From NCBI GenBank assembly GCA_963555755.3, contig OY820905.2, positions 544,001-608,000 on the forward strand: a stretch of 64,000 nucleotides of DNA. The letters are read 5' to 3'. The stretch's first letter is position 1. Each line of letters begins with the position of its first letter. Source of the DNA: Nitrospirales bacterium. Lineage in GTDB: Bacteria > Nitrospirota > Nitrospiria > Nitrospirales > UBA8639. The notes beneath the pieces were generated by a model that was not told the DNA's origin, did not search any database, and saw only the letters and a program-made list of their open reading frames with translations. The translations under genes were made by a program, and so were the position numbers. Shown here piece after piece: positions 4,705-34,709 of the stretch.

Positions 4705-5400
4705 GAATAAGAATTTTAAAAGGCCTTTTTGGCCTGAGCGAAAAGTACCAAAGACCTCGGTGAAGGGTCACTTCCCAGCCTTCGCCGTCCGACATGCTGG
4801 AGTTTACTCTGCGAGTAGGGTCTGACTGGCCTGTTTGCCAGGGATCAGGCCTGCCTTTCGCGCCCTTGGGGCATGTGGACGAGGGAACTGGGCAAAGGGG
4901 AGCGTCGGCTCAGGATCGGAACCGGAATCCGGGGTGGGATTAGGCTGTCAGGAAAAAGTCGTCGATGCGAGCCGGGGCTCGGGGTGGCGCACGCGTGGGC
5001 AGCCCAGGTGTGTGAGAATTTTGGCAATCACCGTGGGATCTTCAATGGCGGCGAGGATGGTCAACGTCCCGCCGCACTGCGGACAGATGGTGATGTCGAT
5101 CGCGAAGACTCGTTTGAGTAATTTCGCCCAGCTCATGCGAGTCCGCGTGGAGACCGATGAGAGCTCGCCGCCCCTATTGGCGGTGTTCGGCGCCTGGTTG
5201 GCCTCACCGGGAACGATCTGGGACCGCAACGCAGCATTGGGGGCGAGCACGCCATGGAAGCGAATGAGATGCAGCCGGGAACGTGGGACGAGCGCCGCGA
5301 GGCGTTGCAGGAATTCCAGCGGGCTCATCACGAGATGGGTGGTGCCATCGCGGTACGGGGTTTTGAGTTGCAACACGACCTCGCCGGTCGGGGTCCGCGC
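4705..5400 (-). mobile_element. IS91/ISCR-family rolling-circle transposase 3' fragment with oriIS end
   Basis: LKTPYRDGTTHLVMSPLEFLQRLAALVP..RLHLIRFHGVLAPN, WAKLLKRVF, CPQCGG; oriIS-like TTTAAAATTCTTATTC on minus strand at 4705-4720. Confidence 0.8.
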
Positions 5401-5533
5401 AGGCGTTTGTGGCCTAGGGCCGGACGGGTGCCATTCATCCCCATGCAAAGCAAGGGGCTTTCCTGGCAGGTCTAGTAACGCGACTCAACCCTCAGATCGG
5501 GATTGCCATATCGCAAGGAATAGTGACTGTGAA

Positions 5534-6342: not shown

Positions 6343-6703
6343 ACGCGCCGGGAGGCAATCGCCTAATCAGCGGTCTCAACATGAGGGGGTTTCTGGCTGC
6401 GAGAAAGGCCCCACCGGTCCCTCGGCCAAGGAGGTTACCCAGGATTGCCACGCATTGTGGCATTTGAGGTGCGTAAAAGGCCGAGGGGGCGTGTTGGCTC
6501 AGGAACTGACCCGGAATACCTGGTGGCAGCAGGCCGTCTGCAATAGAACTACTTGTCCATCCATTTACTGGACACCACACTAGTTATTGGTTTGTTATGG
6601 GAGAAAAATCTGCCATTTCGTCAAGATCCAATGTCAGTGTCCGATAAGGATATTTATCAATTGTAGGATAAGACATATTCAAGTAATGCTTAATGTATCG
6701 TAA

Positions 6704-8152
6704 CTACTCAGGTGTGATGATCTTTGTAGTGAATTGTGCAGGCATAAAGGGGTGGCCGATCATGGCTTGTGAAATGGCTTGCAGCATGTTGCCGCCCTGC
6801 TTTCTCGCGGTAGAAAGGTAGCTTCGTATGCGGGCGAACTGCCTCGCGCCTTGAAGCGTTCGAAAACACCCGGATATTTTGAGGCGGAGCTTGATCATGC
6901 GGATATCCTGTTCTGCCAGATTATTAGTGAAGGGAACCTGTCTGTCATGGAGGAACGCGAGCACGGAGGCTTCATGCTCGCCAAGACGGGTGAGGAGATT
7001 TTGGGCCTTGGTCTTTTTGGGCCGGCCTCGTGACTTTTTCTGTGGCGGTGCCGGAAGGGGGTTGGCCTGCCATCCGAGGGTGAGAAGATCCCTGTATTGT
7101 TTCAGCCAGGGGGTTTTCTGTTCTTCCGTTAACTGTGCGAGTTGCTTGCTGACAAACACGTTCATCGTCAGCAACAGGTCAAACATGTGTTTGGCCCATG
7201 GTTGTTCGTGCTGCTCGAACAGGCACGTGAGTTCCCGCAAATGATGGGCGTTACAGAGGCCGTGGGCACAGTCATAGGAGAGATAGGGTTTCCAGAAATC
7301 GTGGATCAGGCGGCCAGCAAAATCCGGGAGGATCTGGAACTGCTCGATCGCCTCTCTTCCCCGTTTGGCGTGCACACCGTAAAAGGTCAACGTGGCCGTG
7401 CTGGCACTGTGGAGCCAGTGGAGCGTCCCGGCCGTGCGGACGCCGCTTTCATCGGCATGGAGGATGGGACTCTTGCCGAGCGCTTCTTTGACCGCAGTCT
7501 CGAACGGCGCGAGGTGCTCATAACTTCGGCGGGAGGCCTCGTCAATGGTGGCGTCGCTGACCGAGGCGCCATACAGATCAGCCATCATCTGGCTGACACG
7601 GCGTAAGGGGATCAACTGTTGGTTCTGGAGGTAGACCAGGAGGCTGCGAAATCTGGGACCGTACTGTGCCGGCGCAGGCAGGTCATCAGGAAATGACGCC
7701 GTGACCGAGCGGCCGCATTGGGGGCAGGTTTTGATTGCTCCCCGATATTCGGTGACGTCGAGTTTTGGCTCCGGCAGTTCAAAGAGCTGCCGGCGTTCAT
7801 AGCCGGTGACCGTCTCGTTGGTGAGGTCGGCATGGCAGGAACAGGAGTGAACAGGCAGGTGGACCAGGTGGTCTGGGGTTTCCACCTGTTTTAACGTCTG
7901 GCCGGCATGTCCCTGTTGGCCGCCCGGCTTTTTCCCGGAAGGTATGCGCAGGCTCTTGGTTCGGGGCTTGGCCGGTCCATCGGACGAGGGCGGTTTGCTG
8001 CTGTTGCGACTGTGTTGGTCGAGCCGCTGTGCCAGTTCGGTGACATGCGTGGTCAGCGCCTGCCCCTGTTCCTGCAGCGCCAGGATCAGTTCGACGAGCG
8101 CCTCGGGGTTGCTCTTGGCCAGGATGAGGAGTGCGTCGCGGGTGAAGGTCAT
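6704..8152 (-). CDS. IS66-family DDE transposase
   Basis: NSSKPPSSD, KPGGQ.GH.G, CxxC, HADESG, HD.W..Y, H.LC.AH.LREL, FTNNLAEQDIRM.K...KISG.FR. Confidence 0.95.
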   Translation of the reverse strand: MTFTRDALLILAKSNPEALVELILALQEQGQALTTHVTELAQRLDQHSRNSSKPPSSDGPAKPRTKSLRIPSGKKPGGQQGHAGQTLKQVETPDHLVHLPVHSCSCHADLTNETVTGYERRQLFELPEPKLDVTEYRGAIKTCPQCGRSVTASFPDDLPAPAQYGPRFRSLLVYLQNQQLIPLRRVSQMMADLYGASVSDATIDEASRRSYEHLAPFETAVKEALGKSPILHADESGVRTAGTLHWLHSASTATLTFYGVHAKRGREAIEQFQILPDFAGRLIHDFWKPYLSYDCAHGLCNAHHLRELTCLFEQHEQPWAKHMFDLLLTMNVFVSKQLAQLTEEQKTPWLKQYRDLLTLGWQANPLPAPPQKKSRGRPKKTKAQNLLTRLGEHEASVLAFLHDRQVPFTNNLAEQDIRMIKLRLKISGCFRTLQGARQFARIRSYLSTARKQGGNMLQAISQAMIGHPFMPAQFTTKIITPE

Positions 8153-9036
8153 GGCTTGCTCCGGCAGAGGGCCTGTCGGAAGTGGCGGATGAGGGGATAG
8201 AGATAAATTGCCTTCACCGGCACGCGCAGAGCCTTGTCACGGTCCTGCCGGGACCGGCCTTTGGTCTGCCCGACATAGAGCCAGTTCGCGGCCTGATAGC
8301 AGATACCTTTGAAGCGGTCTCGCTCCACAAAGGTCTCCACCAAGTGGACGGGATGGCCGTATTTCTCGATCCAGTCCTGCCGGAGACGTCTCATGACCCG
8401 GCCCAGGAGATGGCTGGCCAGATGCGGCACACGCACCCAGGGCAGGATGAGAAAGCGGGTATTGTTGGTCATGAAGTTGAGGTTGGCGGCTCGGGTGTCC
8501 GGCTCCCAGCCGATAAAGGTGTCGCGCGGGGTGGTTTTCCAGGCGGCGGAACCGAAGAGGAGGCAGGCCAGATCCTGCCCGGAGCGATCCCGCACCAGGT
8601 ACTTGAGATGTTCACCGACCGTTCGGGTGAACCCGAGGTAGTGATGGTGGCTCAGGTAATATCCCACACAACTGGCTTCGTAGGAATGTGAGGTTGGAAT
8701 ATGAATGGACAGGGGCGTCAGGGTCTTGAGAGCTGCGTCGATGTGCGGGGCTTCGGGAGGCATAAACCCCTTTCGGAAAGGGGGGAAGATGTTGCGTCGA
8801 GAGGCGACACGAATCGGGGGCAGCTTCAGGAGCCCGCGATGTTCGAGTTTGTCGATCATGCTGCGGGCGGCAAAGGTTTTCAGTTGTCCGGACGGGGTCT
8901 GCCAGCCCCAGTGCCGACAAATATGCTGGGTTATTTTATGGCGGCTCCAGTCAGGGTGCCGGCAAACCAGATGGCGTAACCAGCACAGATCAGATTGGGG
9001 GAGGCGACGACCTTGACATGTAATCGCTTCATTCAT
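8149..9036 (-). CDS. DUF4338 (DruA-like / Mom-like) protein inside the IS66 element
   Basis: HHYLG, RD.FIGW, NNTRFLILPWV..PHLASH.L, DW...YG.....ETFV....F.G.CYQAANW..VG.T.GR; ATGA overlap with the transposase. Confidence 0.85.
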   Translation of the reverse strand: MNEAITCQGRRLPQSDLCWLRHLVCRHPDWSRHKITQHICRHWGWQTPSGQLKTFAARSMIDKLEHRGLLKLPPIRVASRRNIFPPFRKGFMPPEAPHIDAALKTLTPLSIHIPTSHSYEASCVGYYLSHHHYLGFTRTVGEHLKYLVRDRSGQDLACLLFGSAAWKTTPRDTFIGWEPDTRAANLNFMTNNTRFLILPWVRVPHLASHLLGRVMRRLRQDWIEKYGHPVHLVETFVERDRFKGICYQAANWLYVGQTKGRSRQDRDKALRVPVKAIYLYPLIRHFRQALCRSKP

Positions 9037-9152
9037 GGCCCCGATTATGCCATGGGTGGAGCCGTTAGTCCAGAAAAAAATCAGGCTATAGAAAATTGAC
9101 CTGAGTAGTTACAATGTATCTATTAAACCTGGTTCAGGCAATAGGAAGTAAA

Positions 9153-9672
9153 GAACCCCGCTTTTCCAGGCGGGGCTTTCTTAGAATAAATCCAATTGTT
9201 CCGGATGAGTCGTACGACCGTCATAAAAACGGATGTATTGACTGAAGATCTCTGCTGTGACCTTATCTCCCACCGTTCTCACAAAGTATCCATCCTCCCA
9301 GAATTCTCCGCCCCACAACTCTAGCTGGACACCAGGACATTCTACCCGAATCTCCTTCGCACTCACCGCTTTGAAGATTCTTACCACCTCTGCACTCGAG
9401 TATCGTGGAGGGAAGGACAGAAAGAGATGCACATGGTTTTTGTCTACTTCCAATTCAGCGAGTTCAAACCCATGATGCCCAGCAATCTCTTGAAACAGCT
9501 CCCGAACTCTTTCTCGGACTTCTCCCTGAAGAATCCACTTGCGATATTTGGGTGCCCACACCACGTGATACTTGGTGTCATACACACAGTGGCTGGATCG
9601 CCATGCCACTACCCTAGAGGATTTCTGCTGCCTCGGCAGCACGCATTTTTCTTCCCGCCTTTCCAGGCGGGG
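9153..9672 (-). mobile_element. tnpA: IS200-type element (Y1 TnpA only), 5' end probably frameshifted
   Basis: YHVVWAPKYR, HVHL (HUH), WEDGYFVRTVG, YI; hairpins CCCCGCTTTTCCAGGCGGGG (~9155) and CCCGCCTTTCCAGGCGGG (~9654); nearest ATG (MAIQ) is out of frame. Confidence 0.8.
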
Positions 9673-9916: not shown

Positions 9917-11515
9917 GTGAAAAAGAGGTCCAAACTTATGGATGAACTAAAAAAAGTCAGGCAAAAAATGAAAGCAGTCGAGTCCACCAAGAAAAAAAGG
10001 GCAGCTTCGGGGAAAAAGCTCAATATGCCTTTTCTTATTGGGCTCAGCGCCGCCTTAGTCGTTGGCCTCTGCGGGGGAGTGATGTGGGTGGTCAATTCCA
10101 ATAATGTTGGGACGGTCGGGGTCAACAAGGCCAAAGCCTTGGCCGATCAAGTGACGACCTTACGGACTTTTTATACCCAACAAGTCGTTTCTCGTGCAAA
10201 AGAATCAGGGATGCGCATTAATTACGATTGGGACACGATGCCAAATACGCTACCGCTTCCTGCGACGTTTACGAACGTATTGGGTCAACAAATAAAAAAA
10301 GAAAACCCCGGTACAGCAATTCGGCTCTACAGTCGATACCCGTTTCCTCATCGAAAAGGGACTGAAGTCTACGACCAATTTGAAATGGATGCGCTCAAGG
10401 CACTTGAGCAAAATCCCACAATTCCTTTCTACCGAAAGGAAATCATCAATGGCAGATTGTCCATGCGTTATGCTATTGCCGACCTAATGCGTTCTGCTTG
10501 TATCGATTGCCATAATTCTCATCCAGAAACGCCAAAAAACGATTGGAAGGTTGGGGACGTTCGTGGGGTGGTAGAGATCATTACCCCAATCGATCAGGTC
10601 AACCGAGGTCTATTAAATGGGACGATGATTCTCCTTGCCTGTGTTGCCGTCGGGTTGCTTGGCGTGGCCTCGTTCAGCATTGCTATCATCAAAAAACCCA
10701 TTCACCAGGCGGTACAGGTATTATCTACCACAACAGAGCAACTGGCAGACACCGCCGAACAACAGGAACAATCGGCCATATCGCAATCTAGGTCGGCGAA
10801 TGAAACAACAGCGACGATGAAAGAGTTGGGTGAGTCTTCCACACGGATGGCCGATCAATCAGAAGTGGCGTCCACTGGGACTCAGAAGGCCGCTGCCCTA
10901 ACTGAGCAGGGCTCGGGCATGATCAGGCTTGCTCGGGAGGGGATTGATGCGATGCTGGAAAAAGTTGAAAAAATTGCTGATGAAATTTTTCTTCTATCGG
11001 AGCACACCAGTCAGATCGAAAACATCACACGGTTTGTCAGTGATTTAGCCAATCAGACTAATCTCTTGGCTCTCAATGCTGCCATTGAGGCTGTCCGAGC
11101 CGGAGAACACGGCAAAGGTTTTGCCGTCGTGGCCGGTGAAATCAGAAAACTTGCCGATCAGAGTAAAGCTTCAGCTGAACAAATTAATGTGCTGTTGCTT
11201 GATATTCAGAAAACGACGAAATCCACCGTCATGGTAACCCAAGAAGGGACCAAGACCGTCCAGCAAGTGAAGGAATATGCTCAAGGGGCTATCGATTCGT
11301 TCTCGAATGTCCGGACGGCCGTGGACAGTGCGTATCAAAATGCTATGCAAATTACGCAAAATGCGAAACAACAAGCCAATGCAGTTCAACCCGTTATTGC
11401 AGCGATGAGTTCGCTCAATTCTGGAGCGAAGGCAACAGCCGAGGGGATTCATGAAACCAAGGAGGGAGTGCAAAGGCTGAAAATGATTGCTGATACCCTT
11501 CAAAGTATGGTGTAA
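9917..11515 (+). CDS. Methyl-accepting chemotaxis protein with c-heme (DUF3365/Tll0287-like) sensor domain
   Basis: Two TMs around PLPAT...RLYS.YPF...CIDCH..W..GDVRG; signalling tip [30 protein letters not shown]. Confidence 0.9.
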
Positions 11516-11991
11516 CGCATGTTCTTTTTGGAAAAGATTCCATGGGGTCCACCCTCAAAGAATAAATCGGTTGGAGTCGAGTCCATTGTGGCAGGGTTGG
11601 GAACTCGAACTTCCTCCTTTTGTGGGATTCGAATGTCCCAGGAGGAAACGCCACAGCTGAGTGGATTTTTTCGAAGTAGCGTGACGGCACTTTCTCTGAA
11701 CGATCCCATACAGAATTTTCAGCTTGTCGATTCCCAAGCAGAAGAGGTTTTAGCAGAAAGGGAGCAAGGGCCTGCCCAGATAGTTAGGGTCCTACAAGCC
11801 AAGATCTTTCCAGATGTCTGTAATTTATCAACAACCCCAAACAATTTGTGCCATGTCACACGGGGGCAGTCTGAAGCACCATGAAAATCTGTGTTAACCC
11901 GGTATTAGTCACGAAGCTTTTATTCCATCTCAAAGCACGCTCATTCTCACCCTTTCGGGAAAGTGGATTGTGCTCAAGCTGTGGGTGAACC

Positions 11992-14931
11992 ATGCACTGT
12001 TCGACCTCAATATTGCCAATAACATCCGGATTCCACTTAATCTTCAATCGACATCACACACGTTATGCATTGCCTCTTCCTTTAGTGAAGGAGGTCATTT
12101 GCCTTCCCGAGCTGGTCTCTCTTGACAATATGCCAGATCATATCGTTGGGGTCTTTAACTACCATGGGCAACTTGTACCGGTGATGAATCTGGATAGCCC
12201 CTTAGGGCACGTTTCATTTCGGTACAAGATCAGTGACAATATAATCCTTTTCGAATGGGATGGCTTTGTGAGTGGATTGATTATAGATGAAACTCGGAAT
12301 GTGTTGGATATTCAAGCCGAAGAGATGGAATTGGAATCCCCGCCAGAAATCGAATCTGGTCATCCGCACCCTCTCATAGCCCATTTGGTGCAGCATGATG
12401 ATGGTGTGATCAACATGTTGCATCCACTTCCCTTACCCCAAGATCGAGATGCCATAAAGCATTTCATTCAGAACATATCTGAATCTGACCATGATGGTCA
12501 GCTGAGAGATTCTCCCAATATTATCCGAGGAATGACGCTGTTGGAAAAAACCATGTTGCGGGAACGTACCACGAGTCTCATGGAAACTGACCAAGAAGAC
12601 CCCTCGGAGTACACTCAACTCGTTGTCATCCGTATCAACCAGGAATATTTTGGGATTGATTTAGGCTTGATACGGGAATGTGCTGAATTTAGGCGCGTGA
12701 CTCCCATGCCCGGCTGTCCAGAATTTGTTGTCGGGGTCATCAATGTACGAGGGGAAGTGTTACCCATTGTTGACTTGCGTGCCACACTCAATGTGCCGAT
12801 CGCTGAGTGCGAAAATTTCCACAAGGCTGTCGTCGTCCAGTTTGAAAATATTTTCGTCGGTATTGTTGTTGAAGAAATCATTGAGTCGGTTTTTCTTCAA
12901 GCAAGTGATATGGTGTCTGGTTCCTTGACTGGGAGCGTGAAGGAAGAAGGGTATATTCGGGGAATTGCTCAATTCCACGATCAGAAATTCCTTAAGGTGT
13001 TAGATTTGCAGAAGCTCCTGGTAAATGGAGAATTAACGGTTGACCAAACATTTTCCCGGTCAGCATCTGATCAGCAGCAGGCTGTTTCGGAAGGTAGTGT
13101 TGAGCCTGCAGGTAGTGAGGATAATCAATTACATGCCATTTTTATGCGGGAGAGCAAAGAATCCCTGAGAGAACTCCGTGAATCGATTATGAGTTTACGA
13201 GATACTTTGAGTGACACGGGAGATAAAACAGAGGGCTTCGGCCAGGCGGCGCTGCAAAGAGCCTTCAACCAGTCCCATTTTCTGATGAGCGTCGCTCGAA
13301 TGTTGGGAGCCCGAAAAATGGAAATTGTTGCCCGTCGGGTTGAGGACCTATTACGACTGGCGAAACGAGGACAGGACGTGCTGACTCTAGAATTTGTTGA
13401 TTCCTTGGACCATGGCGTAAATGGCGTTCAGGCACTCTTGGATGAATTTACGACAGGGGCCACGACGGATATTGATCCCAACGGCTTTTTTGATGAAAAA
13501 AGCTTAGTCGAAGTAGGAATGGCTCACGAGCCTATGCAAGTACGACTGGATGAAGAGGCAAGCCAAAGAGATCATGGGGGAGCCCTCTTAGTAGAATCCG
13601 TCAGATTAGATGCCTTGATGGATCAGGTGAATGACCTGAAGGCAGTCATTTGTGGAAGGCAGGAATGCCTCTTAGATACTGCACAGCTTGTGGAGTTTTC
13701 CGATTCATGGGGGCGTGCGGTCTTTGCGCATCGCGCAATCGGTGTAAAGGGAAATCGTTCAAGGCAGCTGATGACTAGGGACGATATGGCGAATTTTTAT
13801 AAACAGGAAAGCCAACAGCTTGTCGTATTAACTAGTGTGGTTGGTCGCGTCGCCAGAATGGTTTGTGATGAACATCAGCGGTTGAGTTCGATCTCAGAGA
13901 CACTGGAAGAAAATCTCCGTTCCATGCGGCTCATTCCCTTTTCCTCATGCTTGCAATATCTTCCGAGGATGGTCTCTGATATCGGCCGTGAACTTTGTAA
14001 AGAGGTCGAGCTGAGTATTGAGGGGAAGCATATGACGGTGGATATGCAGGTCCTGGAAGAATTGAAGGAGCCGTTGCGTCATCTCATACGCAACGCTATT
14101 CACCATGGGATTGAGACACCAGAAGAACGGATTCAGGCTGGGAAAGCACGAAAGGGATCCCTTCGGCTCTATGTCTTTCAAATGGGAACGCACCTGATTC
14201 TTGAATTGTGGGACGATGGGAGAGGATTAGATCTTGATGCAATCAAGCAGACCGCTTTTCAAGCCAAACTGTATACTCATGAACAATTGGAGTCGATGGC
14301 CCTTCCAGAAATTCAGTCCTTGATTTTTAACCCGGGTTTCTCCACGGAATCTTCTCTCCCAGGTGGGTCGGAAAAGGGAATGGGGTTGGATGTGGTGCAG
14401 TCTCATGTCAAGGGTCTCAAAGGAGCGGTGTATGTAGGATCGACTTCCGGCTCTGGGTGTATGATACAAATTCAATTGCCGGGGCCCACGCCGTCCGTTC
14501 ATCTGTTGATTGTCTCCGTGGCAGGCCAGAAATTTGGAATTCCCATCGACCGGGTTCAGACGACGACCTACTTGCTTTCGGAGGGACCGCAGGCTTCAAA
14601 GAATCAAGGATTTGTGGGTGAAGGTGGGCAAGTGGTTCCGCTTGTGGCTCTCGCTGATTTATTGGAAATGGGGGATACGGCCATACAGGACGAACTCTTC
14701 CCATGCGTGGTTATGGTGGTAGAGGACAAACCGCTTGGATTCCTGGTTGAAGAAATTTTGACTGCACAAGAAGTCAAACCCCAACCACAGGGAATCATTT
14801 TAAAAAAAGTGCGCAACGTGTCAGGTTCTACCATTCTCAACACTGGAGAGGTATGTATCATTTTGAATCCTGATGATCTGGTGCGGTCGGCCCAGAAACA
14901 GCTGGTTGGTACACCCACCCGGCTCATATAG
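11992..14931 (+). CDS. cheA: CheW-CheW-Hpt-CheA(dimerisation, HATPase)-CheW fusion
   Basis: Two N-terminal CheW domains (GVFNYHGQLVPV; GVINVRGEVLPIVDL), Hpt-like SHFLMSVARMLG, HLIRNAIHHGIE, DDGRG, GFST, GMGLDVV, C-terminal CheW. Confidence 0.85.
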   Translation: MHCSTSILPITSGFHLIFNRHHTRYALPLPLVKEVICLPELVSLDNMPDHIVGVFNYHGQLVPVMNLDSPLGHVSFRYKISDNIILFEWDGFVSGLIIDETRNVLDIQAEEMELESPPEIESGHPHPLIAHLVQHDDGVINMLHPLPLPQDRDAIKHFIQNISESDHDGQLRDSPNIIRGMTLLEKTMLRERTTSLMETDQEDPSEYTQLVVIRINQEYFGIDLGLIRECAEFRRVTPMPGCPEFVVGVINVRGEVLPIVDLRATLNVPIAECENFHKAVVVQFENIFVGIVVEEIIESVFLQASDMVSGSLTGSVKEEGYIRGIAQFHDQKFLKVLDLQKLLVNGELTVDQTFSRSASDQQQAVSEGSVEPAGSEDNQLHAIFMRESKESLRELRESIMSLRDTLSDTGDKTEGFGQAALQRAFNQSHFLMSVARMLGARKMEIVARRVEDLLRLAKRGQDVLTLEFVDSLDHGVNGVQALLDEFTTGATTDIDPNGFFDEKSLVEVGMAHEPMQVRLDEEASQRDHGGALLVESVRLDALMDQVNDLKAVICGRQECLLDTAQLVEFSDSWGRAVFAHRAIGVKGNRSRQLMTRDDMANFYKQESQQLVVLTSVVGRVARMVCDEHQRLSSISETLEENLRSMRLIPFSSCLQYLPRMVSDIGRELCKEVELSIEGKHMTVDMQVLEELKEPLRHLIRNAIHHGIETPEERIQAGKARKGSLRLYVFQMGTHLILELWDDGRGLDLDAIKQTAFQAKLYTHEQLESMALPEIQSLIFNPGFSTESSLPGGSEKGMGLDVVQSHVKGLKGAVYVGSTSGSGCMIQIQLPGPTPSVHLLIVSVAGQKFGIPIDRVQTTTYLLSEGPQASKNQGFVGEGGQVVPLVALADLLEMGDTAIQDELFPCVVMVVEDKPLGFLVEEILTAQEVKPQPQGIILKKVRNVSGSTILNTGEVCIILNPDDLVRSAQKQLVGTPTRLI

Positions 14932-14961
14932 GTAACCCATTGCCAGCTACGGGGAATCAGA

Positions 14962-16083
14962 ATGATAAAAATTTCAGTGGATACACATTCCTCAGCGAAA
15001 GGTAATCCACAAATGATGAAGAAAAAAGATATTCTTTCTCTCCTAGAAGAGGTTCAAACAGTCGCTCAAACCTTGTATAGCGAACACGCAACCCTGGGAG
15101 ACCACGTGAAGACAATTGAAGCTGAAATGTCGACGCTTAGAGCAGAGAAAGCCCAACTCGCCCAAGCCTTACAGGCTCCTCCGCCTCAGGCTGAACCCAC
15201 CGAAATCGAAGCGAAATTGTCGAAGCTTCGGGCAGAGAAAACCCAAGAAATATGGAACCTACAGGAAATCAATGCGCACTTGACCCAAGAGTTGCAGGAG
15301 ACAAAAACCCAACTTGCCCAAGGCTTACAGGCTCCTCCGCCTCAGGCTGAACCCACCAAAATCGAAGCGAAATTGTCGAAGCTTCGGGCAGAGAAAACCC
15401 AAGAAATATGGAACCTACAGGAAATCAATGCGCACTTGACCCAAGAGTTGCAGGAGACAAAAACCCAACTTGCCCAAGGCTTACAGGCTCCTCCGCCTCA
15501 GACCGAACCCACGCAAGAGAAGCAGGCATTACAAGCCAGCAATGCGCAGTTGACCAAGGAGTTGCAGGAGACAAAAACCCAACTCACCCAAGCCTTACAA
15601 GCTCCTCAACCTCAGGCTGAACTCACACAAGAGGTCCAGACGTTACAGGCCGGCAATGCGCAGTTGACCAAGGAGTTACAGGAGACGAAAACGCGACTCG
15701 CCCAAGCCTTACAGGCTCCTCCGCCTCAGGCTGAACCCACCGAAATCGAAGCGAAATTATCGAAGCTTCAGGCAGAGAAAACCCAAGAAATATGGAACCT
15801 ACAGGAAATCAATGCGCACTTGACCCAAGAGTTGCAGGATGCGCTAGCCCAACTTGCCCATGGAGTACCGTCAGGTAAGGAAAATATCGATTCCTTGCCT
15901 CCTGAATTCCAAAACTTGAAAGAACAACTCCAATATGCGGAATTCCACAATTTTTTATTGGAGCAGGAAGTGTCAAAACAACATGATGAAATCCAGGTAC
16001 TAGAAAGGAGCCTTGAGACCGCTACATCTCAGGCCTCGCCTTTTTCACCAGTTGATGAATCCATTGCGACTTCTTCGTCATGA
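14962..16083 (+). CDS. Coiled-coil protein with internal 52-aa and 38-aa tandem repeats
   Basis: Q/E/L-rich ORF with repeated LQAPPPQAEPT. Confidence 0.7.
   Translation: MIKISVDTHSSAKGNPQMMKKKDILSLLEEVQTVAQTLYSEHATLGDHVKTIEAEMSTLRAEKAQLAQALQAPPPQAEPTEIEAKLSKLRAEKTQEIWNLQEINAHLTQELQETKTQLAQGLQAPPPQAEPTKIEAKLSKLRAEKTQEIWNLQEINAHLTQELQETKTQLAQGLQAPPPQTEPTQEKQALQASNAQLTKELQETKTQLTQALQAPQPQAELTQEVQTLQAGNAQLTKELQETKTRLAQALQAPPPQAEPTEIEAKLSKLQAEKTQEIWNLQEINAHLTQELQDALAQLAHGVPSGKENIDSLPPEFQNLKEQLQYAEFHNFLLEQEVSKQHDEIQVLERSLETATSQASPFSPVDESIATSSS
15172..15860 (+). repeat. Intragenic tandem repeats (156, 156, 114, 114, ~150 bp)
   Basis: CA[G/A]GCTCCT unit starts at 15172, 15328, 15484, 15598, 15712. 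Confidence 0.85.
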
Positions 16084-16189
16084 CCTCTGACTTGACGCAC
16101 ATTTGGGGGAACTGGGCATCATCTTATAAAGGAATGATTTGTCGATTCGCAAAGACCAACCGGAGATATGAAAAATGTCAATTCCCTTC

Positions 16190-16685
16190 TTTTGTGTTTT
16201 ATGCCGGAGAGGGGTGGCGTGAACATTCCACACAAGCCATGCAAGATGTGAATACCATTAAGGAGAAAAAGGAAACGCTTCAAGGGTTTACCGTTGTGAT
16301 TGTTGGGGACGTTTCACATAGCCGAGTGGCACGATCCAATATTGCCGCCTTAACCAAATTAGGGGAGGAGCTAAGAGTTGTGGCTCCGCGACCATGCTCC
16401 CTCTTTTTGTGGAACGGCTTGGCGCCAAAGAATTGTACCCATTTGAACGCCTTAATCGGAGCCGATGTGATTATGATGCAAGGATGACAACGAGAAGGGT
16501 GTGGGCAAGCCTTACTGCCCAATGTTCGCGAATAGCCTAAATTGTGTGGTCTAACCTTGGAACGACTCAAACTGACTAAACCTGAAGACATTGTCATGCA
16601 TCCGGATTCGCTGAATCGAGGAATTGAAATCGCACCCGCCGGTGCAGATAGTTTTCCTGTGGCCATTTTAGACCAAGTCACCAAA
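16190..16685 (+). pseudogene. pyrB: Aspartate carbamoyltransferase fragment, decayed
   Basis: AGEGWREHSTQA, IVGDVSHSRVARSN, IVMHPDSLNRGIEI, ILDQV across several frames with stops; no 5' half. Confidence 0.8.
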
Positions 16686-17276
16686 CTCTTGGTGGTTCCT
16701 CTTGTAACAAAGCCAAGGGGGGCCCCTTGGGAAACCACGAACAGGTTCATCCGGGAATGTTTCCCAAAAGACTCGGATCTCACTGGAGTCATTTATCCGG
16801 CAACCGTGCAAATGGTATTTATTTTTTGAAAACCCTTATTCCATAGGTATTTTATGATATTTCATGGAGTAGGTTACATTGCCAGGGTACTAAAAAGTAA
16901 TAATAATCCGCCAAAACAAATATGGCTCATCAGGAAATTTGTAGATACACGTGAGAGGGTTTTGATCGTTCACAGGACCAAATGGCTAAGACCGACCGGG
17001 CTTCTGAATGTTGACATGGACCTGCATTCGATCCAAGGTCCTTCAAAGCATTCAAAGATCCGGTTCATCCGCTTTGTAAGCAGAGGCGGAGGTGGGGTAG
17101 AAGCGTCCTCCGGGCTCACGATACCCGAACGAACGTGCCTAAACCCACTCCAAGCCTCTACCTCCCCTGTCCCCTCCTTACAAAGGAGGGGAATGGTGAG
17201 ACAAAGCCCTTTGGTGTTTAACCCACACAATTTCCTGAAGGGCCAAAAATATTAATCCCTAACAAGGGGTACTAAC

Positions 17277-17711
17277 ATGAAAACGTCTGTAAATATCTTG
17301 ATTTTACTCCTCTTTTCGTTTTCTGCCTGTTCGGAGACTGTTGACTCTGAGTATTCCACCTTGGATGAAGCAAGGAAGAAAAATGCCATTCGGACAGGAT
17401 TGATTCCAGAATGGTTGCCAGATACTTCCCAGCAAATCAAGGTGGCCTTTGATATTAGTACCAATGAAAAAATTTTGACCTTCCAATATACGATCGCTGA
17501 AGGCTGGAACCCGCTGGAGATATGCGAGCAAATTGACTCATTTGCTCCGCCAACCCCTCAATTAAACCGTTCCTGGTGGCCCAAAGATGTTCCTACCCAT
17601 AATGGCTCTCTTCCCCGCCATACTTTTTACACTTGCGAAAATGGAGGTTCTTTTCTTGCAGTTCATCCGCAAGTCGGGCAAGTTTTTTATTGGAACACCA
17701 AGTACCATTAA
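17277..17711 (+). CDS. Putative lipoprotein
   Basis: Signal peptide ending in lipobox-like FSAC. Confidence 0.65.
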   Translation: MKTSVNILILLLFSFSACSETVDSEYSTLDEARKKNAIRTGLIPEWLPDTSQQIKVAFDISTNEKILTFQYTIAEGWNPLEICEQIDSFAPPTPQLNRSWWPKDVPTHNGSLPRHTFYTCENGGSFLAVHPQVGQVFYWNTKYH

Positions 17712-31686: not shown

Positions 31687-31857
31687 ACCTAGAAAACTAA
31701 AGGAAAGCTTGAATGTGCTAACTGGCTGTAAATAACGATTTTCTTTTGTTTTTCCCCTCTTTTGTAAGGAGGGGTCAGGGGAGGAAGAAGACTTCTATCT
31801 CATGATTTCAGATCATACAGGTTCTGAGGGAAAAGGAAAAGGTGGAATATTTTAAGT

Positions 31858-31943
31858 GGGGTTTCGTCCCCACACGTCGAGACACTTTTGTTTCGGCAAA
31901 ATTGTTCAAAACCATTTTCGCCGGTGCGCGGCCCCATGGGGAT
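31858..31943. repeat. 86-bp repeat arm, inverted relative to 34522-34607
   Basis: About 68/86 identity to the reverse complement of 34522-34607 (hand count). Confidence 0.8.
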
Positions 31944-34521
31944 CAATGGCATTCGTTTAAGGAATGGGCGGCATTCGTTTAAGGATTTGGCTCATTCGTT
32001 TAAGAAACGGATTCCATGTGCTTAAGGGACTTTCAGATAGAGGCCATCGACCCTGTGGGGTTCTTGGACTGGCTGTTCTTTTTGGGTGGATGCCACGTGG
32101 ACTCCGGTTTCATGGATGTTCGAGGATAGGATCGGCCCGGCCTCACCCGTTGGTAGTGACTCACAATGGACTCGAAGGCCCGTTGGACGGCGGTCTGCAT
32201 CCGAGCATGGAGCACGAGCAGATCTTCGAAGCTTCGCGCAAACACGTGAAGGCAATGTTTGAAGTTGGTCTTGAATGTCCGCCTCGCCCCGGTGCCGGTT
32301 CCAACTATGGACGATCCGGGAGGGGCCATGGGCTCAGCTGCGGGGGCTTCGGGATTGAGTGCGTGGTCCGCCCGATTGGCGAACAGCCGGTTCATGGTGA
32401 TCAGGACGAAATGCGCGAAGAGCTCTTGTTTGACGCCGCGCTCGGTTTTGGCATGAAACTCCTCGATGAGGAACAGGCGCTTGCTCACCTTGTAGAGTTC
32501 CTCGATGCCCCAACGGGCATGGTAGAGATCCATGAACTCCTGGAGCGGATACCGCTGCTGGGGGCCGACCAGGGTGGTGCCCAAGCAAAATCGGCTGCCG
32601 GCCATCTCATATTTCAGAAGCCGCAGGCTCAACGGGATGATGGCGAGATCAGGATAGACCGCCCGGATGTCTCGTTGCGTGCGTGCGGCGGGGAAGAGGG
32701 TGACCGTGGTGTCGGTGTCCGGGCCGGCAAAAAACTCTTGAATCTCCTTGAACCCGCTGTCTTGGAGACGAAACACGGCGTGGATCCCGGCGGTCCAGTG
32801 CTGATGCAGCAGGACGTAGGAGAAATAGCCTCGATCGTACACCACGACATCGTTGGGCTTCAGCACAGCCAGGTGCCGCAGGGCGCACCGTCGCTCGTTG
32901 CCATGCGCGACGAGGTCGAAATCCCAGGGCACTTGCGACGTGAGGTGGTAGAGGCAACTCAGCAACCCTTGAGGATAGTGTGCATTGTCAGAGGGCAAGG
33001 GGTAGCCACACGCCCGCAACGCGCGGGGCAGTGTAAGCTTGGAGCCATCGACGGCAAACACCCGATGGCCCAACCAGGTGTCGTTGGAGTCGTGTGGGGC
33101 ATAGGCGTCCAGAATGTTCCGGTTGACGGACTGGAAAATGGCTTCGTCCAGTTTGCGACGTGCGACACAAAAGGACGCCGGCGCGATGCTGTGGGGTTGC
33201 GGGAGCGCGAGCGCCAGGTTGTCGCAACTGTCCCACAAGTCATCAATGGTGGTGCCGTAACTTTGGGAGTTGGTTGACGACACCAACCGAAAGATCAACA
33301 GCATCAGGATCAGGGAATCGATCACCCGTTTCCGGACGCGCCACTGGTCATCGTACTGGGCCGCCACGTCGTGGAGGATGTGGACCACCTGTTTCCACCA
33401 GGCGACAAACCCTTCCCCGACGGACCGTGTGCGACTGGCTCGCACGTCGTTGCGATAGCGTGTCTTCACCGTGACGGCTCGATGCCCGGCAGTCAGGCAC
33501 GCGCGCCAGTCGGGTTGGAGCGGATAGAGAAAAATCTCTTTTGTCGTGGGTGGACGGTCCGACGTTGAGCCAAACCGCCCGCGCCCCTCGGTGTAGCCCA
33601 CGAAGTGCCAATTGGCCGCTCGATAACAGGTCCCGGCAAACCGGGAGGGATCGATGAACGTTTCAATCAGCACCGGGCGATAACCGTAGACTTCAACCCA
33701 GTCGTCCCCGATCTGCTTGGTGGCCCGCGCCAGCACATGGCTGGCGAGATTCGGCACGTCAATCCACGGAAAGATCAAAAACCGATCATTGCGCAACACC
33801 AATGGCAGGAGCTTCCTCCGGTGCGTCACGTCCCAGCCAATCCAGTGATCTCTGGGGGCCAGCGCCCAGGCGGCCGAGGCCGAAAACAGCAGACAGCCCA
33901 GCGGGTACGGCTGGGCGGCCGATCTCACCAGATAGCCCAGCTGGGCCCCGATCGGGTGTTTATAGCCCAAATAATGATAGGTCTGCAGGTAGGCTTTCCA
34001 GCTCTCGCGTTCCTCTTTCGAGACCACCCGGTGCAGGGTAATTGGGGCCACGGCGGCGAGGGTGTCGGTGAGTGGCTCGGTGGGGGGCGGCTCGTGAAAC
34101 GCAGGGATGGGGTGTCCCGGCGCGCGCTTGTGGCGCGTGGCCGGCAGAGTCACGATCCCGTGCGCTTCCAGCTCGGTCAGCAAGGTCAAACAGGAATGAA
34201 TCTTGTTGTGGCCCGTCGGCGTGGTCCAGCTGAGATGCTCACAGACGGTGAGGGCCAATTCCTTCCGACTCAGGTGGGGGAACAGCTGGACGGTTTCTTG
34301 GACCTGCGCCAACTGCTTGCGGGTGAACCGCCGCCCGCTAAAGGTCGTCTTGGGTAAGGTGTCCACAGTCTTCATCGAGGATAGTCTCTCAGAAGACGGA
34401 AAAGAAGTCAAGCGAAAAAGGACACCAGGGCGACTTCGGTTCAGAAGCCCTGATCAATCAACCAGTTCCGCTGATAACAGAGAAGGCAGATTGTTCGTTC
34501 GAACCAAACCGAATGCCATTG
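31944..34521 (-). mobile_element. IS4-family element encoding a DUF4338-transposase fusion
   Basis: TIR CAATGGCATTCG / CGAATGCCATTG; higher GC than flanks; no direct TSD. Confidence 0.85.
32033..34411 (-). CDS. DUF4338 (DruA/Mom-like) domain fused to IS4-family DDE transposase
   Basis: N-half: YHYLG, RD.WIGW, RFLIFPW, ETFID..RF.GTCYRAANW..VG.T; C-half: AVDGS, YDRGY, YHARWGIEELYK; start may be ATG 34375. Confidence 0.88.
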   Translation of the reverse strand: MTSFPSSERLSSMKTVDTLPKTTFSGRRFTRKQLAQVQETVQLFPHLSRKELALTVCEHLSWTTPTGHNKIHSCLTLLTELEAHGIVTLPATRHKRAPGHPIPAFHEPPPTEPLTDTLAAVAPITLHRVVSKEERESWKAYLQTYHYLGYKHPIGAQLGYLVRSAAQPYPLGCLLFSASAAWALAPRDHWIGWDVTHRRKLLPLVLRNDRFLIFPWIDVPNLASHVLARATKQIGDDWVEVYGYRPVLIETFIDPSRFAGTCYRAANWHFVGYTEGRGRFGSTSDRPPTTKEIFLYPLQPDWRACLTAGHRAVTVKTRYRNDVRASRTRSVGEGFVAWWKQVVHILHDVAAQYDDQWRVRKRVIDSLILMLLIFRLVSSTNSQSYGTTIDDLWDSCDNLALALPQPHSIAPASFCVARRKLDEAIFQSVNRNILDAYAPHDSNDTWLGHRVFAVDGSKLTLPRALRACGYPLPSDNAHYPQGLLSCLYHLTSQVPWDFDLVAHGNERRCALRHLAVLKPNDVVVYDRGYFSYVLLHQHWTAGIHAVFRLQDSGFKEIQEFFAGPDTDTTVTLFPAARTQRDIRAVYPDLAIIPLSLRLLKYEMAGSRFCLGTTLVGPQQRYPLQEFMDLYHARWGIEELYKVSKRLFLIEEFHAKTERGVKQELFAHFVLITMNRLFANRADHALNPEAPAAEPMAPPGSSIVGTGTGARRTFKTNFKHCLHVFARSFEDLLVLHARMQTAVQRAFESIVSHYQRVRPGRSYPRTSMKPESTWHPPKKNSQSKNPTGSMASI

Positions 34522-34607
34522 ACCCTCATGGGGCCGCGCACGGGCAAATATGGTTTTGGGTCCTTTTGCCTAAACAAAAGGATCTCACCGAGCGGGGATG
34601 AAACCCC
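34522..34607. repeat. 86-bp repeat arm, inverted relative to 31858-31943
   Basis: Reverse complement aligns without gaps to 31858-31943. Confidence 0.8.
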
Positions 34608-34709
34608 GAATAAAATGATTTTTGTTTTGTAGCCTTGGATATAAAGGGCAGAAGCAATAAAGAGCCTGGCAGCAAGATCTCTGGGTATTCAGGGGAAATA
34701 TTGATTTGA

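Follow-up and report, generated by a model that had tools for sequence, protein, structure and literature searches.

An IS4-family element with a fused transposase gene

We analysed a 64,000-nt stretch of a Nitrospirales bacterium genome (the window; assembly GCA_963555755.3, contig OY820905.2, positions 544,001 to 608,000 of the forward strand), which contains an IS4-family insertion sequence (IS) at window positions 31944–34521 (−) whose only gene joins a PF14236 domain (DUF4338, now named DruA) to a transposase. The 2578-bp element is bounded by a perfect 12-bp inverted repeat, CAATGGCATTCG, and the ends given in a preliminary description of this DNA proved exact. The left terminal inverted repeat (34510–34521, −) lies upstream of the gene and is degenerate in its inner part relative to the right end (31944–32004, +), which carries tandem copies of the core CATTCGTTTAAG at 31950, 31972 and 31993, with spacings of 22 and 21. 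We found 11 full copies on contig C1 with 0–2 mismatches, one partial copy on C2 and one sibling at 85% identity; the element is intact and has multiplied recently. Among the contig C1 copies, seven have an exact 10-bp target duplication and one more has a duplication with one mismatch; two of the 11 lie in C runs, where the length of the duplication is not fixable, and the window copy has no target duplication at its junctions. The element thus has both the terminal inverted repeats and the duplication of about 10 bp that mark the IS4 family. Judged by the descriptions in Table 1 of PMC2266710, its 5'-CAAT ends fit ‘CA’ (IS4Sa) and not ‘CAT’, and the 10-bp repeat fits several subgroups. At G000:C1:4359017-4370524, two identical copies are clustered within 12 kb with the 85%-identical sibling, which has an internal deletion in the domain. 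Assembled contigs from two RNA sequencing runs contain the element, such contigs being uninformative on transcription.

The fusion gene occupies 32033–34375 (−) and encodes 780 aa from an ATG at 34375, and the frame remains open to a TTG at 34411 (792 aa). Because homologues begin at this ATG, which is nearly invariant as M1 among 118 homologue rows, it is most likely the true start; the 792-aa ORF first described therefore holds as an open reading frame (ORF), with a protein most likely of 780 aa, and residue numbers here count from the ATG. Within the 792-aa frame the N-terminal half matches PF14236 (E 2e-36) and the C-terminal half matches PF01609 (E 3e-17) in Pfam, the latter half also exceeding the cut-off of the NCBIfam IS4 transposase model NF033592 (153.8 bits versus 115), which bears out the claim that the two are fused in frame. 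The IS4-family DDE transposase (32081–33418, −; aa 320–765) has the intact triad that had been noticed (D443, D514, E625) together with a complete YREK signature (Y618-R621-E625-K632), and these residues are kept in 117–118 of 118 homologues. Its closest solved structure is Tn5 transposase. Upstream lies the PF14236 domain, a Mom-like GNAT domain by the comparisons below (33488–34051, −; aa 109–296), with H134, Y135, R198, S212, D242 and Y251 retained in 116–118 of 118 fused homologues. This is preceded by an N-terminal three-helix domain (34136–34348, −; aa 10–80; modelled helices 19–31, 37–48 and 59–71), which by its model we infer to be a helix-turn-helix (HTH) DNA-binding module. A weak HTH_32 match (E 0.008) was found only for the N-terminal part of the IS66 version of the protein. 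On the opposite strand, 437-aa (31964–33277, +, over the transposase) and 250-aa ORFs were treated as shadow frames; neither is matched in Pfam, and the 437-aa frame is also unmatched in NCBIfam.

That IS66 version belongs to a second element in the window (6700–9112, −; 2413 bp; 14 copies; 8-bp duplications), in which a related domain is a separate gene. The 295-aa gene (8149–9036, −), which has the N-terminal domain and the Mom-like GNAT domain, overlaps the start of the 482-aa IS66 transposase gene (6704–8152, −) by 4 nt. The N-terminal half of the fusion is 37% identical to this protein over 287 aa (E 2e-57), including the N-terminal GR..SR..L..C..W segment. We therefore agree with the earlier observations that the two proteins share motifs and that the domain sits upstream of the transposase in both settings, coupled in IS66 and fused in IS4. 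An IS200-type transposase without the domain (9181–9642) adjoins the IS66 element.

A fusion unique to this copy, or a lack of purifying selection on its domain, would have refuted the preliminary reading, and neither holds. Both Pfam domains were present in all 120 best matches (of 1513; identity 59–90%). Transposase motifs recruited 492 genome loci, ranked in a way that favours full-length matches, and 69 of the best 80, archaeal as well as bacterial, have a single-ORF fusion. From 60 distinct proteins we formed 1770 pairs, of which 68 had 0.1<dS<1.5; in the 15 disjoint pairs used, dN/dS (Nei–Gojobori) was 0.07–0.28 in the GNAT part versus 0.07–0.25 in the transposase. These comparisons indicate an old fusion, with purifying selection acting on its domain. 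Fused elements have in common ends of 5'-CAATG(G/T)CATT, a length of about 2.5 kb and 10-bp duplications, and the end core is repeated at +21/22 in 38 of 41 distinct right ends versus 4 of 32 left ends. Scanning viral contigs by the end motif gave 12 loci, none of which has the transposase; one (L239:3001-3120) is a 120-bp miniature element with ends as in the fused family and a 10-bp duplication.

Likeness of the domain to phage Mu Mom

The predicted structure of aa 1–300 is confident (pLDDT 94, pTM 0.88), and its top solved match in Foldseek was phage Mu Mom (8bv8; E 1.8e-6) at 19% identity, with other GNATs at 8–14%. VIA-align against 48,161 chains likewise placed 8bv8 first (Z 14.8, rmsd 3.2, 165 aligned residues), the next chain scoring Z 12.0. 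A protein named Mom was among the top rows from a viral library. In the ESM Atlas, Mom clusters were the top named matches (0.87–0.89), which we take as a lead only, and the N-terminal part of the fusion matched unnamed clusters. A less confident model of the full-length fusion had Tn5 transposase as its first structural match and Mom as its best GNAT match. At the level of sequence, hhalign comparison of profiles (138 domain rows versus 121 Mom rows) gave an E-value of 4e-4 and a score exceeding all 20 column shuffles used as a control, and the alignment places Mom H58, Y59, S124, D149 and Y159 on H134, Y135, S212, D242 and Y251 of the fusion. The canonical GNAT acetyl-CoA pyrophosphate loop, Q/RxxGxG/A, occurs in just 4 of 138 domain rows and 1 of 121 Mom rows. 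The domain has a basic GRGR loop.

According to passages of PMC13219725, Mom takes glycine from Gly-tRNA and attaches it to N6 of adenine in double-stranded DNA, so acting as a tRNA-dependent DNA adenine aminoacyltransferase, and shields DNA from restriction; its active-site residues are H58, Y59, R111, S124, D149, R151 and Y159, and an HTH-like insertion is essential. The domain studied here has in common with Mom (PF25680) the GNAT fold, counterparts of H58, Y59, S124, D149, Y159 and, probably, R111, and the lack of a canonical acetyl-CoA loop. Unlike Mom, it has its own N-terminal helical domain, an RD.WIGW insert and a fused or coupled transposase, and its activity is predicted.

The domain also has a homologous core in common with Druantia DruA and other stand-alone PF14236 proteins (hhalign probability 97%). 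These DruA-type proteins differ in being about 390–430 aa long and located off transposases, and in four of them (L002, L003, L218, L219) the Mom-type H/Y, R, S and D residues are apparently absent, a fifth locus having yielded no sequence; in a tree they branch apart from the transposon domains. At L002, the gene lies beside one for a HerA-like ATPase (named by eye). The element does not have the make-up of Druantia type I: PF14236 is matched at positions 36–224 of 297 only, druB–E are absent and the element holds no other gene. PADLOC matched DruA weakly, over short stretches of about 50 aa (E 0.01 and 0.0005). A passage of PMC10853773 calls DUF4338 a GNAT in a DndF fusion, as a co-effector acting on proteins, and makes no transposase link there.

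Transposase partners, domain-less relatives and insertion sites

This genome has 74 domain ORFs, 72 of them joined to a transposase or lying just before one; the other two are short fragments that have no such partner. The partners are 43 ISAs1, 14 IS66, 13 IS4 and 2 IS50-type transposases, so that IS4 as a ‘second IS family’ was right as far as it went, and understated the range. A 1904-bp ISAs1-type element (G000:C1:4217013-4218917 and about 38 more copies) is one of the genome's two most abundant elements. In the ISAs1 form the GNAT domain is joined to the N-terminal part of the transposase, with no N-terminal helical domain, and the transposase is split at an A7G slippery site in 35 of 42 ORFs, where the sequence leads us to infer a programmed frameshift.

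An exhaustive search for the domain gave 7906 clusters (50% identity) at E<=0.001. When the 66 of the best 150 clusters that reach at least 340 aa were scanned for partner domains, 38 had a transposase domain (19 IS4-like, 12 IS50, 3 ISAzo13, 2 IS66, 1 IS630 and 1 ISAs1), 3 had another domain and 25 had none. Two IS66 transposases (P0282, P0308) carry the domain at the C-terminus, reversing the usual order. For the stand-alone gene we sampled 80 metagenome loci, of which 4 were too short, and a transposase-like gene was directly downstream at 73 of the remaining 76: 60 IS66, 2 IS1634, 1 IS50, and 8 IS5/IS1182-like and 2 weakly ISAs1-like partners, the last ten falling below curated cut-offs or being assigned by likeness. 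One recurring downstream partner (L184, L194, L213, L175, L176, L190, L198), with weak IS1182 likeness and no Pfam match, is possibly an unclassified transposase lineage. By established classification, every partner family assigned here is of DDE type. On a quick tree of 46 domains, 8 changes of partner are required, against a minimum of 7 and a mean of 23.4 after shuffling; this suggests that captures were few and old and that domain and partner transposase then descended together.

The fused elements resemble IS4 elements of the NF033592 type in their DDE and YREK residues, short inverted repeats starting 5'-CA, 10-bp duplications and hairpin or repeat targets, and differ from the IS4 family in their length of about 2.5 kb, a 300-aa N-terminal addition and asymmetric ends. 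In passages of PMC2266710, the one IS4 subgroup said to carry extra DNA is IS231, where it takes the form of separate passenger genes. Three lineages without PF14236, with transposases 38–40% identical, were found at a Robbsia plasmid locus and at loci in genomes G315 and G279 (L216, L253/L256/L258/L260 and L254). Like the fused elements they have ends CAATGGCATTCGGTTAAG and 10-bp duplications; they differ in being 1427–1448 bp long, with symmetric 18-bp ends that lack the +21/22 repeat (0 of 3 lineages). G315 has four scored domain-less copies, and its genome, for which completeness was not given, has no PF14236 match. Since such sister elements multiply too, with the same ends, the domain is likely accessory, and the cut-and-paste chemistry of this lineage can probably do without it, at least in the sister hosts. 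The three lineages form one clade, so the end asymmetry counts as a single event; the root of the tree is weak and the outgroups long, and the difference may reflect either gain or loss of the domain.

Among genomes, PF14236 was matched in 4 of 41 relatives and 12 of 121 genomes of the phylum, counts that include G000 and some DruA-type proteins. In 4 of 5 genomes chosen for carrying the fusion, there were 17–62 matches. A trait of the hosts or a habitat in common could explain this patchy distribution, with its many copies per carrier.

Junction comparison placed the DNA on either side of the window copy outside the IS: the left flank (31849–31943) is the inverted half of a dispersed genomic repeat of about 200 bp, a favoured target, and the right flank (34522–34616) is the same half. 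This repeat has internal hairpins (for example G000:C1:939250-939540, L270), 56 blast matches cover the intact site, and it was unmatched in Rfam. One hairpin position in it is the insertion point for 5 of the 11 copies. We considered whether the 110-nt inverted repeat surrounding the window element is a long terminal repeat, and rejected this because 6 of 11 copies lack those halves at the junction. The order of purL and a methyltransferase gene is conserved in congeners. In one congener (G003) about 2.3 kb of different DNA separates the two repeat halves, and in the closest (L266 in G006:C106; loci L261, L262 and L268 were compared too) a sibling IS ends at the identical base on the methyltransferase-gene side. 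Because congeners hold other DNA or a sibling IS end at this place and both flanks of the window copy carry the same repeat half, the comparison suggests that an element-mediated deletion removed intervening DNA in the window's genome. In the closest congener the DNA next to purL is different and includes a gene that by eye looks Uma2-like. Elsewhere in the window are an IS91-type remnant without the domain (4948–5448) and a chemotaxis-like cluster (9917–17711), in which a 979-aa protein, read by eye, resembles a CheW-CheW-Hpt-CheA fusion.

What the domain may do

That the partners belong to many unrelated transposase families speaks for a substrate common to all of them, such as DNA, over a single protein surface, and we judge it probable that the domain modifies DNA for some purpose, be it a shield or self-regulation. 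More specifically, we tentatively propose, as a good possibility short of probable, that the Mom-like domain is an accessory DNA-modifying enzyme that performs tRNA-fed adenine acylation aimed at element DNA, shielding it from host nucleases. The GNAT domain would add an acyl group, probably an aminoacyl group from a charged tRNA, to adenines in and around the element. Either the transposase or the N-terminal helical domain might provide local targeting, the extra repeats at the right end being putative loading sites, and the modified DNA would resist restriction-type nucleases of the host, to the presumed benefit of the element.

Several observations weigh against this proposal. The sequence link between the domain and Mom is weak: hhalign gave a probability of 31–35%, a single-sequence alignment of the domain to Mom was not significant, the Pfam Mom model PF25680 scored 13.4 and 19.1 bits against a gathering score of 27.1 (E 0.001–0.06), and a sequence search of the PDB with the domain gave no match. 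hhalign did not align R198 with the essential R111 of Mom; the invariant R198 is probably its counterpart, assigned by strand register alone. The counterpart of Mom's essential R151 is partly conserved (R245 in 74 of 118), and the essential HTH-like insertion of Mom (175–209) is unmatched, with a gap or a short hairpin at that place in the domain. Passages of PMC13219725 note that Mom's substrates are not predictable from structure, and substrates are easily switched among GNATs. Finally, the domain was found in 2 of 72,556 plasmids and 0 of 50,697 phages, collections that under-sample the carrier hosts, which is a poor fit to protection during transfer.

The same Mom-like fold and residues would also serve an adenine mark for self-regulation. 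Set at the promoter or ends of its own element, such a mark might work as an on/off switch of the Dam type, or might flag DNA that is already used or occupied and so avert self-insertion. Dam methylation controls IS10 and IS50, and the extra core repeats at the right ends of fused elements, absent from all three domain-less lineages, would suit such a mark, as would the joining of the domain to the N-terminal part of the ISAs1 transposase before the A7G site, which resembles a regulatory upstream product. We nevertheless consider this use unlikely: the end asymmetry is a single event, dozens of copies persist in carrier genomes and, by eye, neither an adenine motif nor the Mom-type SASNY motif is common to the ends of the three common elements.

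Proteins or small molecules are the substrates of most GNATs, and the domain may instead acylate a protein or an aminoacyl-tRNA; candidates are the transposase, some factor of the host or, as with toxins, a target in translation. The treatment of DUF4338 as a protein-acting co-effector in the DndF fusion (passage of PMC10853773) and the mention of tRNA-targeting GNAT toxins (passage of PMC13219725) favour such a substrate. It appears quite unlikely, however, given that Mom stands 2.8 Z units above every other representative, that the partner transposases are unrelated, that no antitoxin-like extra gene lies inside the element ends and that the host tolerates 74 gene copies. A non-catalytic role, in which the domain binds nucleic acid such as target DNA or tRNA and raises the efficiency of transposition, would be in keeping with the putative helical DNA-binding domain, the basic loop and the strong selection; we think it very unlikely, as the catalytic-type residues are near-invariant and duplication length and ends are unchanged without the domain. 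Highly improbable is a Druantia-like anti-phage cargo whose host benefit favours retention of the element, for which the Pfam name and the clear homology to stand-alone PF14236 proteins speak, and against which stand the poor PADLOC matches, the apparent lack of Mom-type residues in the four separately branching DruA-type proteins and the absence of another gene from the element, since discrimination of phage DNA would need a partner not encoded here.

Returning to local adenine acylation of element DNA, the preliminary description had proposed that the domain is a modification system acting in cis on the element. The modification half of that idea gains support from the predicted Mom-like fold and the active-site residues. 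Action in cis on element DNA or intermediates is putative. The domain often occurs as a separate gene, and domain-less sister elements have multiplied, so it likely stands outside core transposition chemistry in this lineage.

An association of Mom with transposases appears to have been predicted in 2009: an abstract by Iyer, Tahiliani, Rao and Aravind (Cell Cycle 8:1698) reportedly connected Mom-like proteins with various families of bacterial transposases and put forward the idea that transposable elements modify DNA. Our literature search, with most subscription papers and supplements outside its scope, found neither a published link of DUF4338/DruA or Mom to insertion sequences nor an experimental follow-up of the 2009 prediction. 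Passages of PMC7261163, PMC7824862, PMC4738411, PMC2266710, PMC12707154 and PMC3874153 contain no link of the domain to insertion sequences; the supplements of PMC13219725 (homologue network) and PMC10853773, which lay outside the search, could bear on novelty. New here are the NF033592-type lineage, the domain-less sister clade, which shows the features that travel with the domain, the end asymmetry and the residue-level comparison with solved Mom chemistry. With that chemistry solved recently (passages of PMC13219725), the function of the domain is directly testable. For annotation there is a risk in Pfam and NCBI names such as ‘Druantia protein DruA’, by which transposon genes, including 74 ORFs in this genome, would be counted as anti-phage systems.

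Apart from mobility, insertion sequences are generally considered to encode little. Should the domain modify DNA, base modifications would be written by a large group of environmental elements themselves, with consequences for how these get past the defences of their hosts and for base marks in long-read data that still lack an explanation. In its broadest form, which we regard as possible and somewhat doubtful, insertion sequences of at least seven DDE lineages in bacteria and archaea (7,906 matching clusters) would encode a tethered, tRNA-fed hypermodification enzyme that writes a local non-methyl mark on element DNA. If true, insertion sequences would be writing an epigenetic layer, and the enzyme would offer a way of labelling DNA that can be directed to chosen sites.

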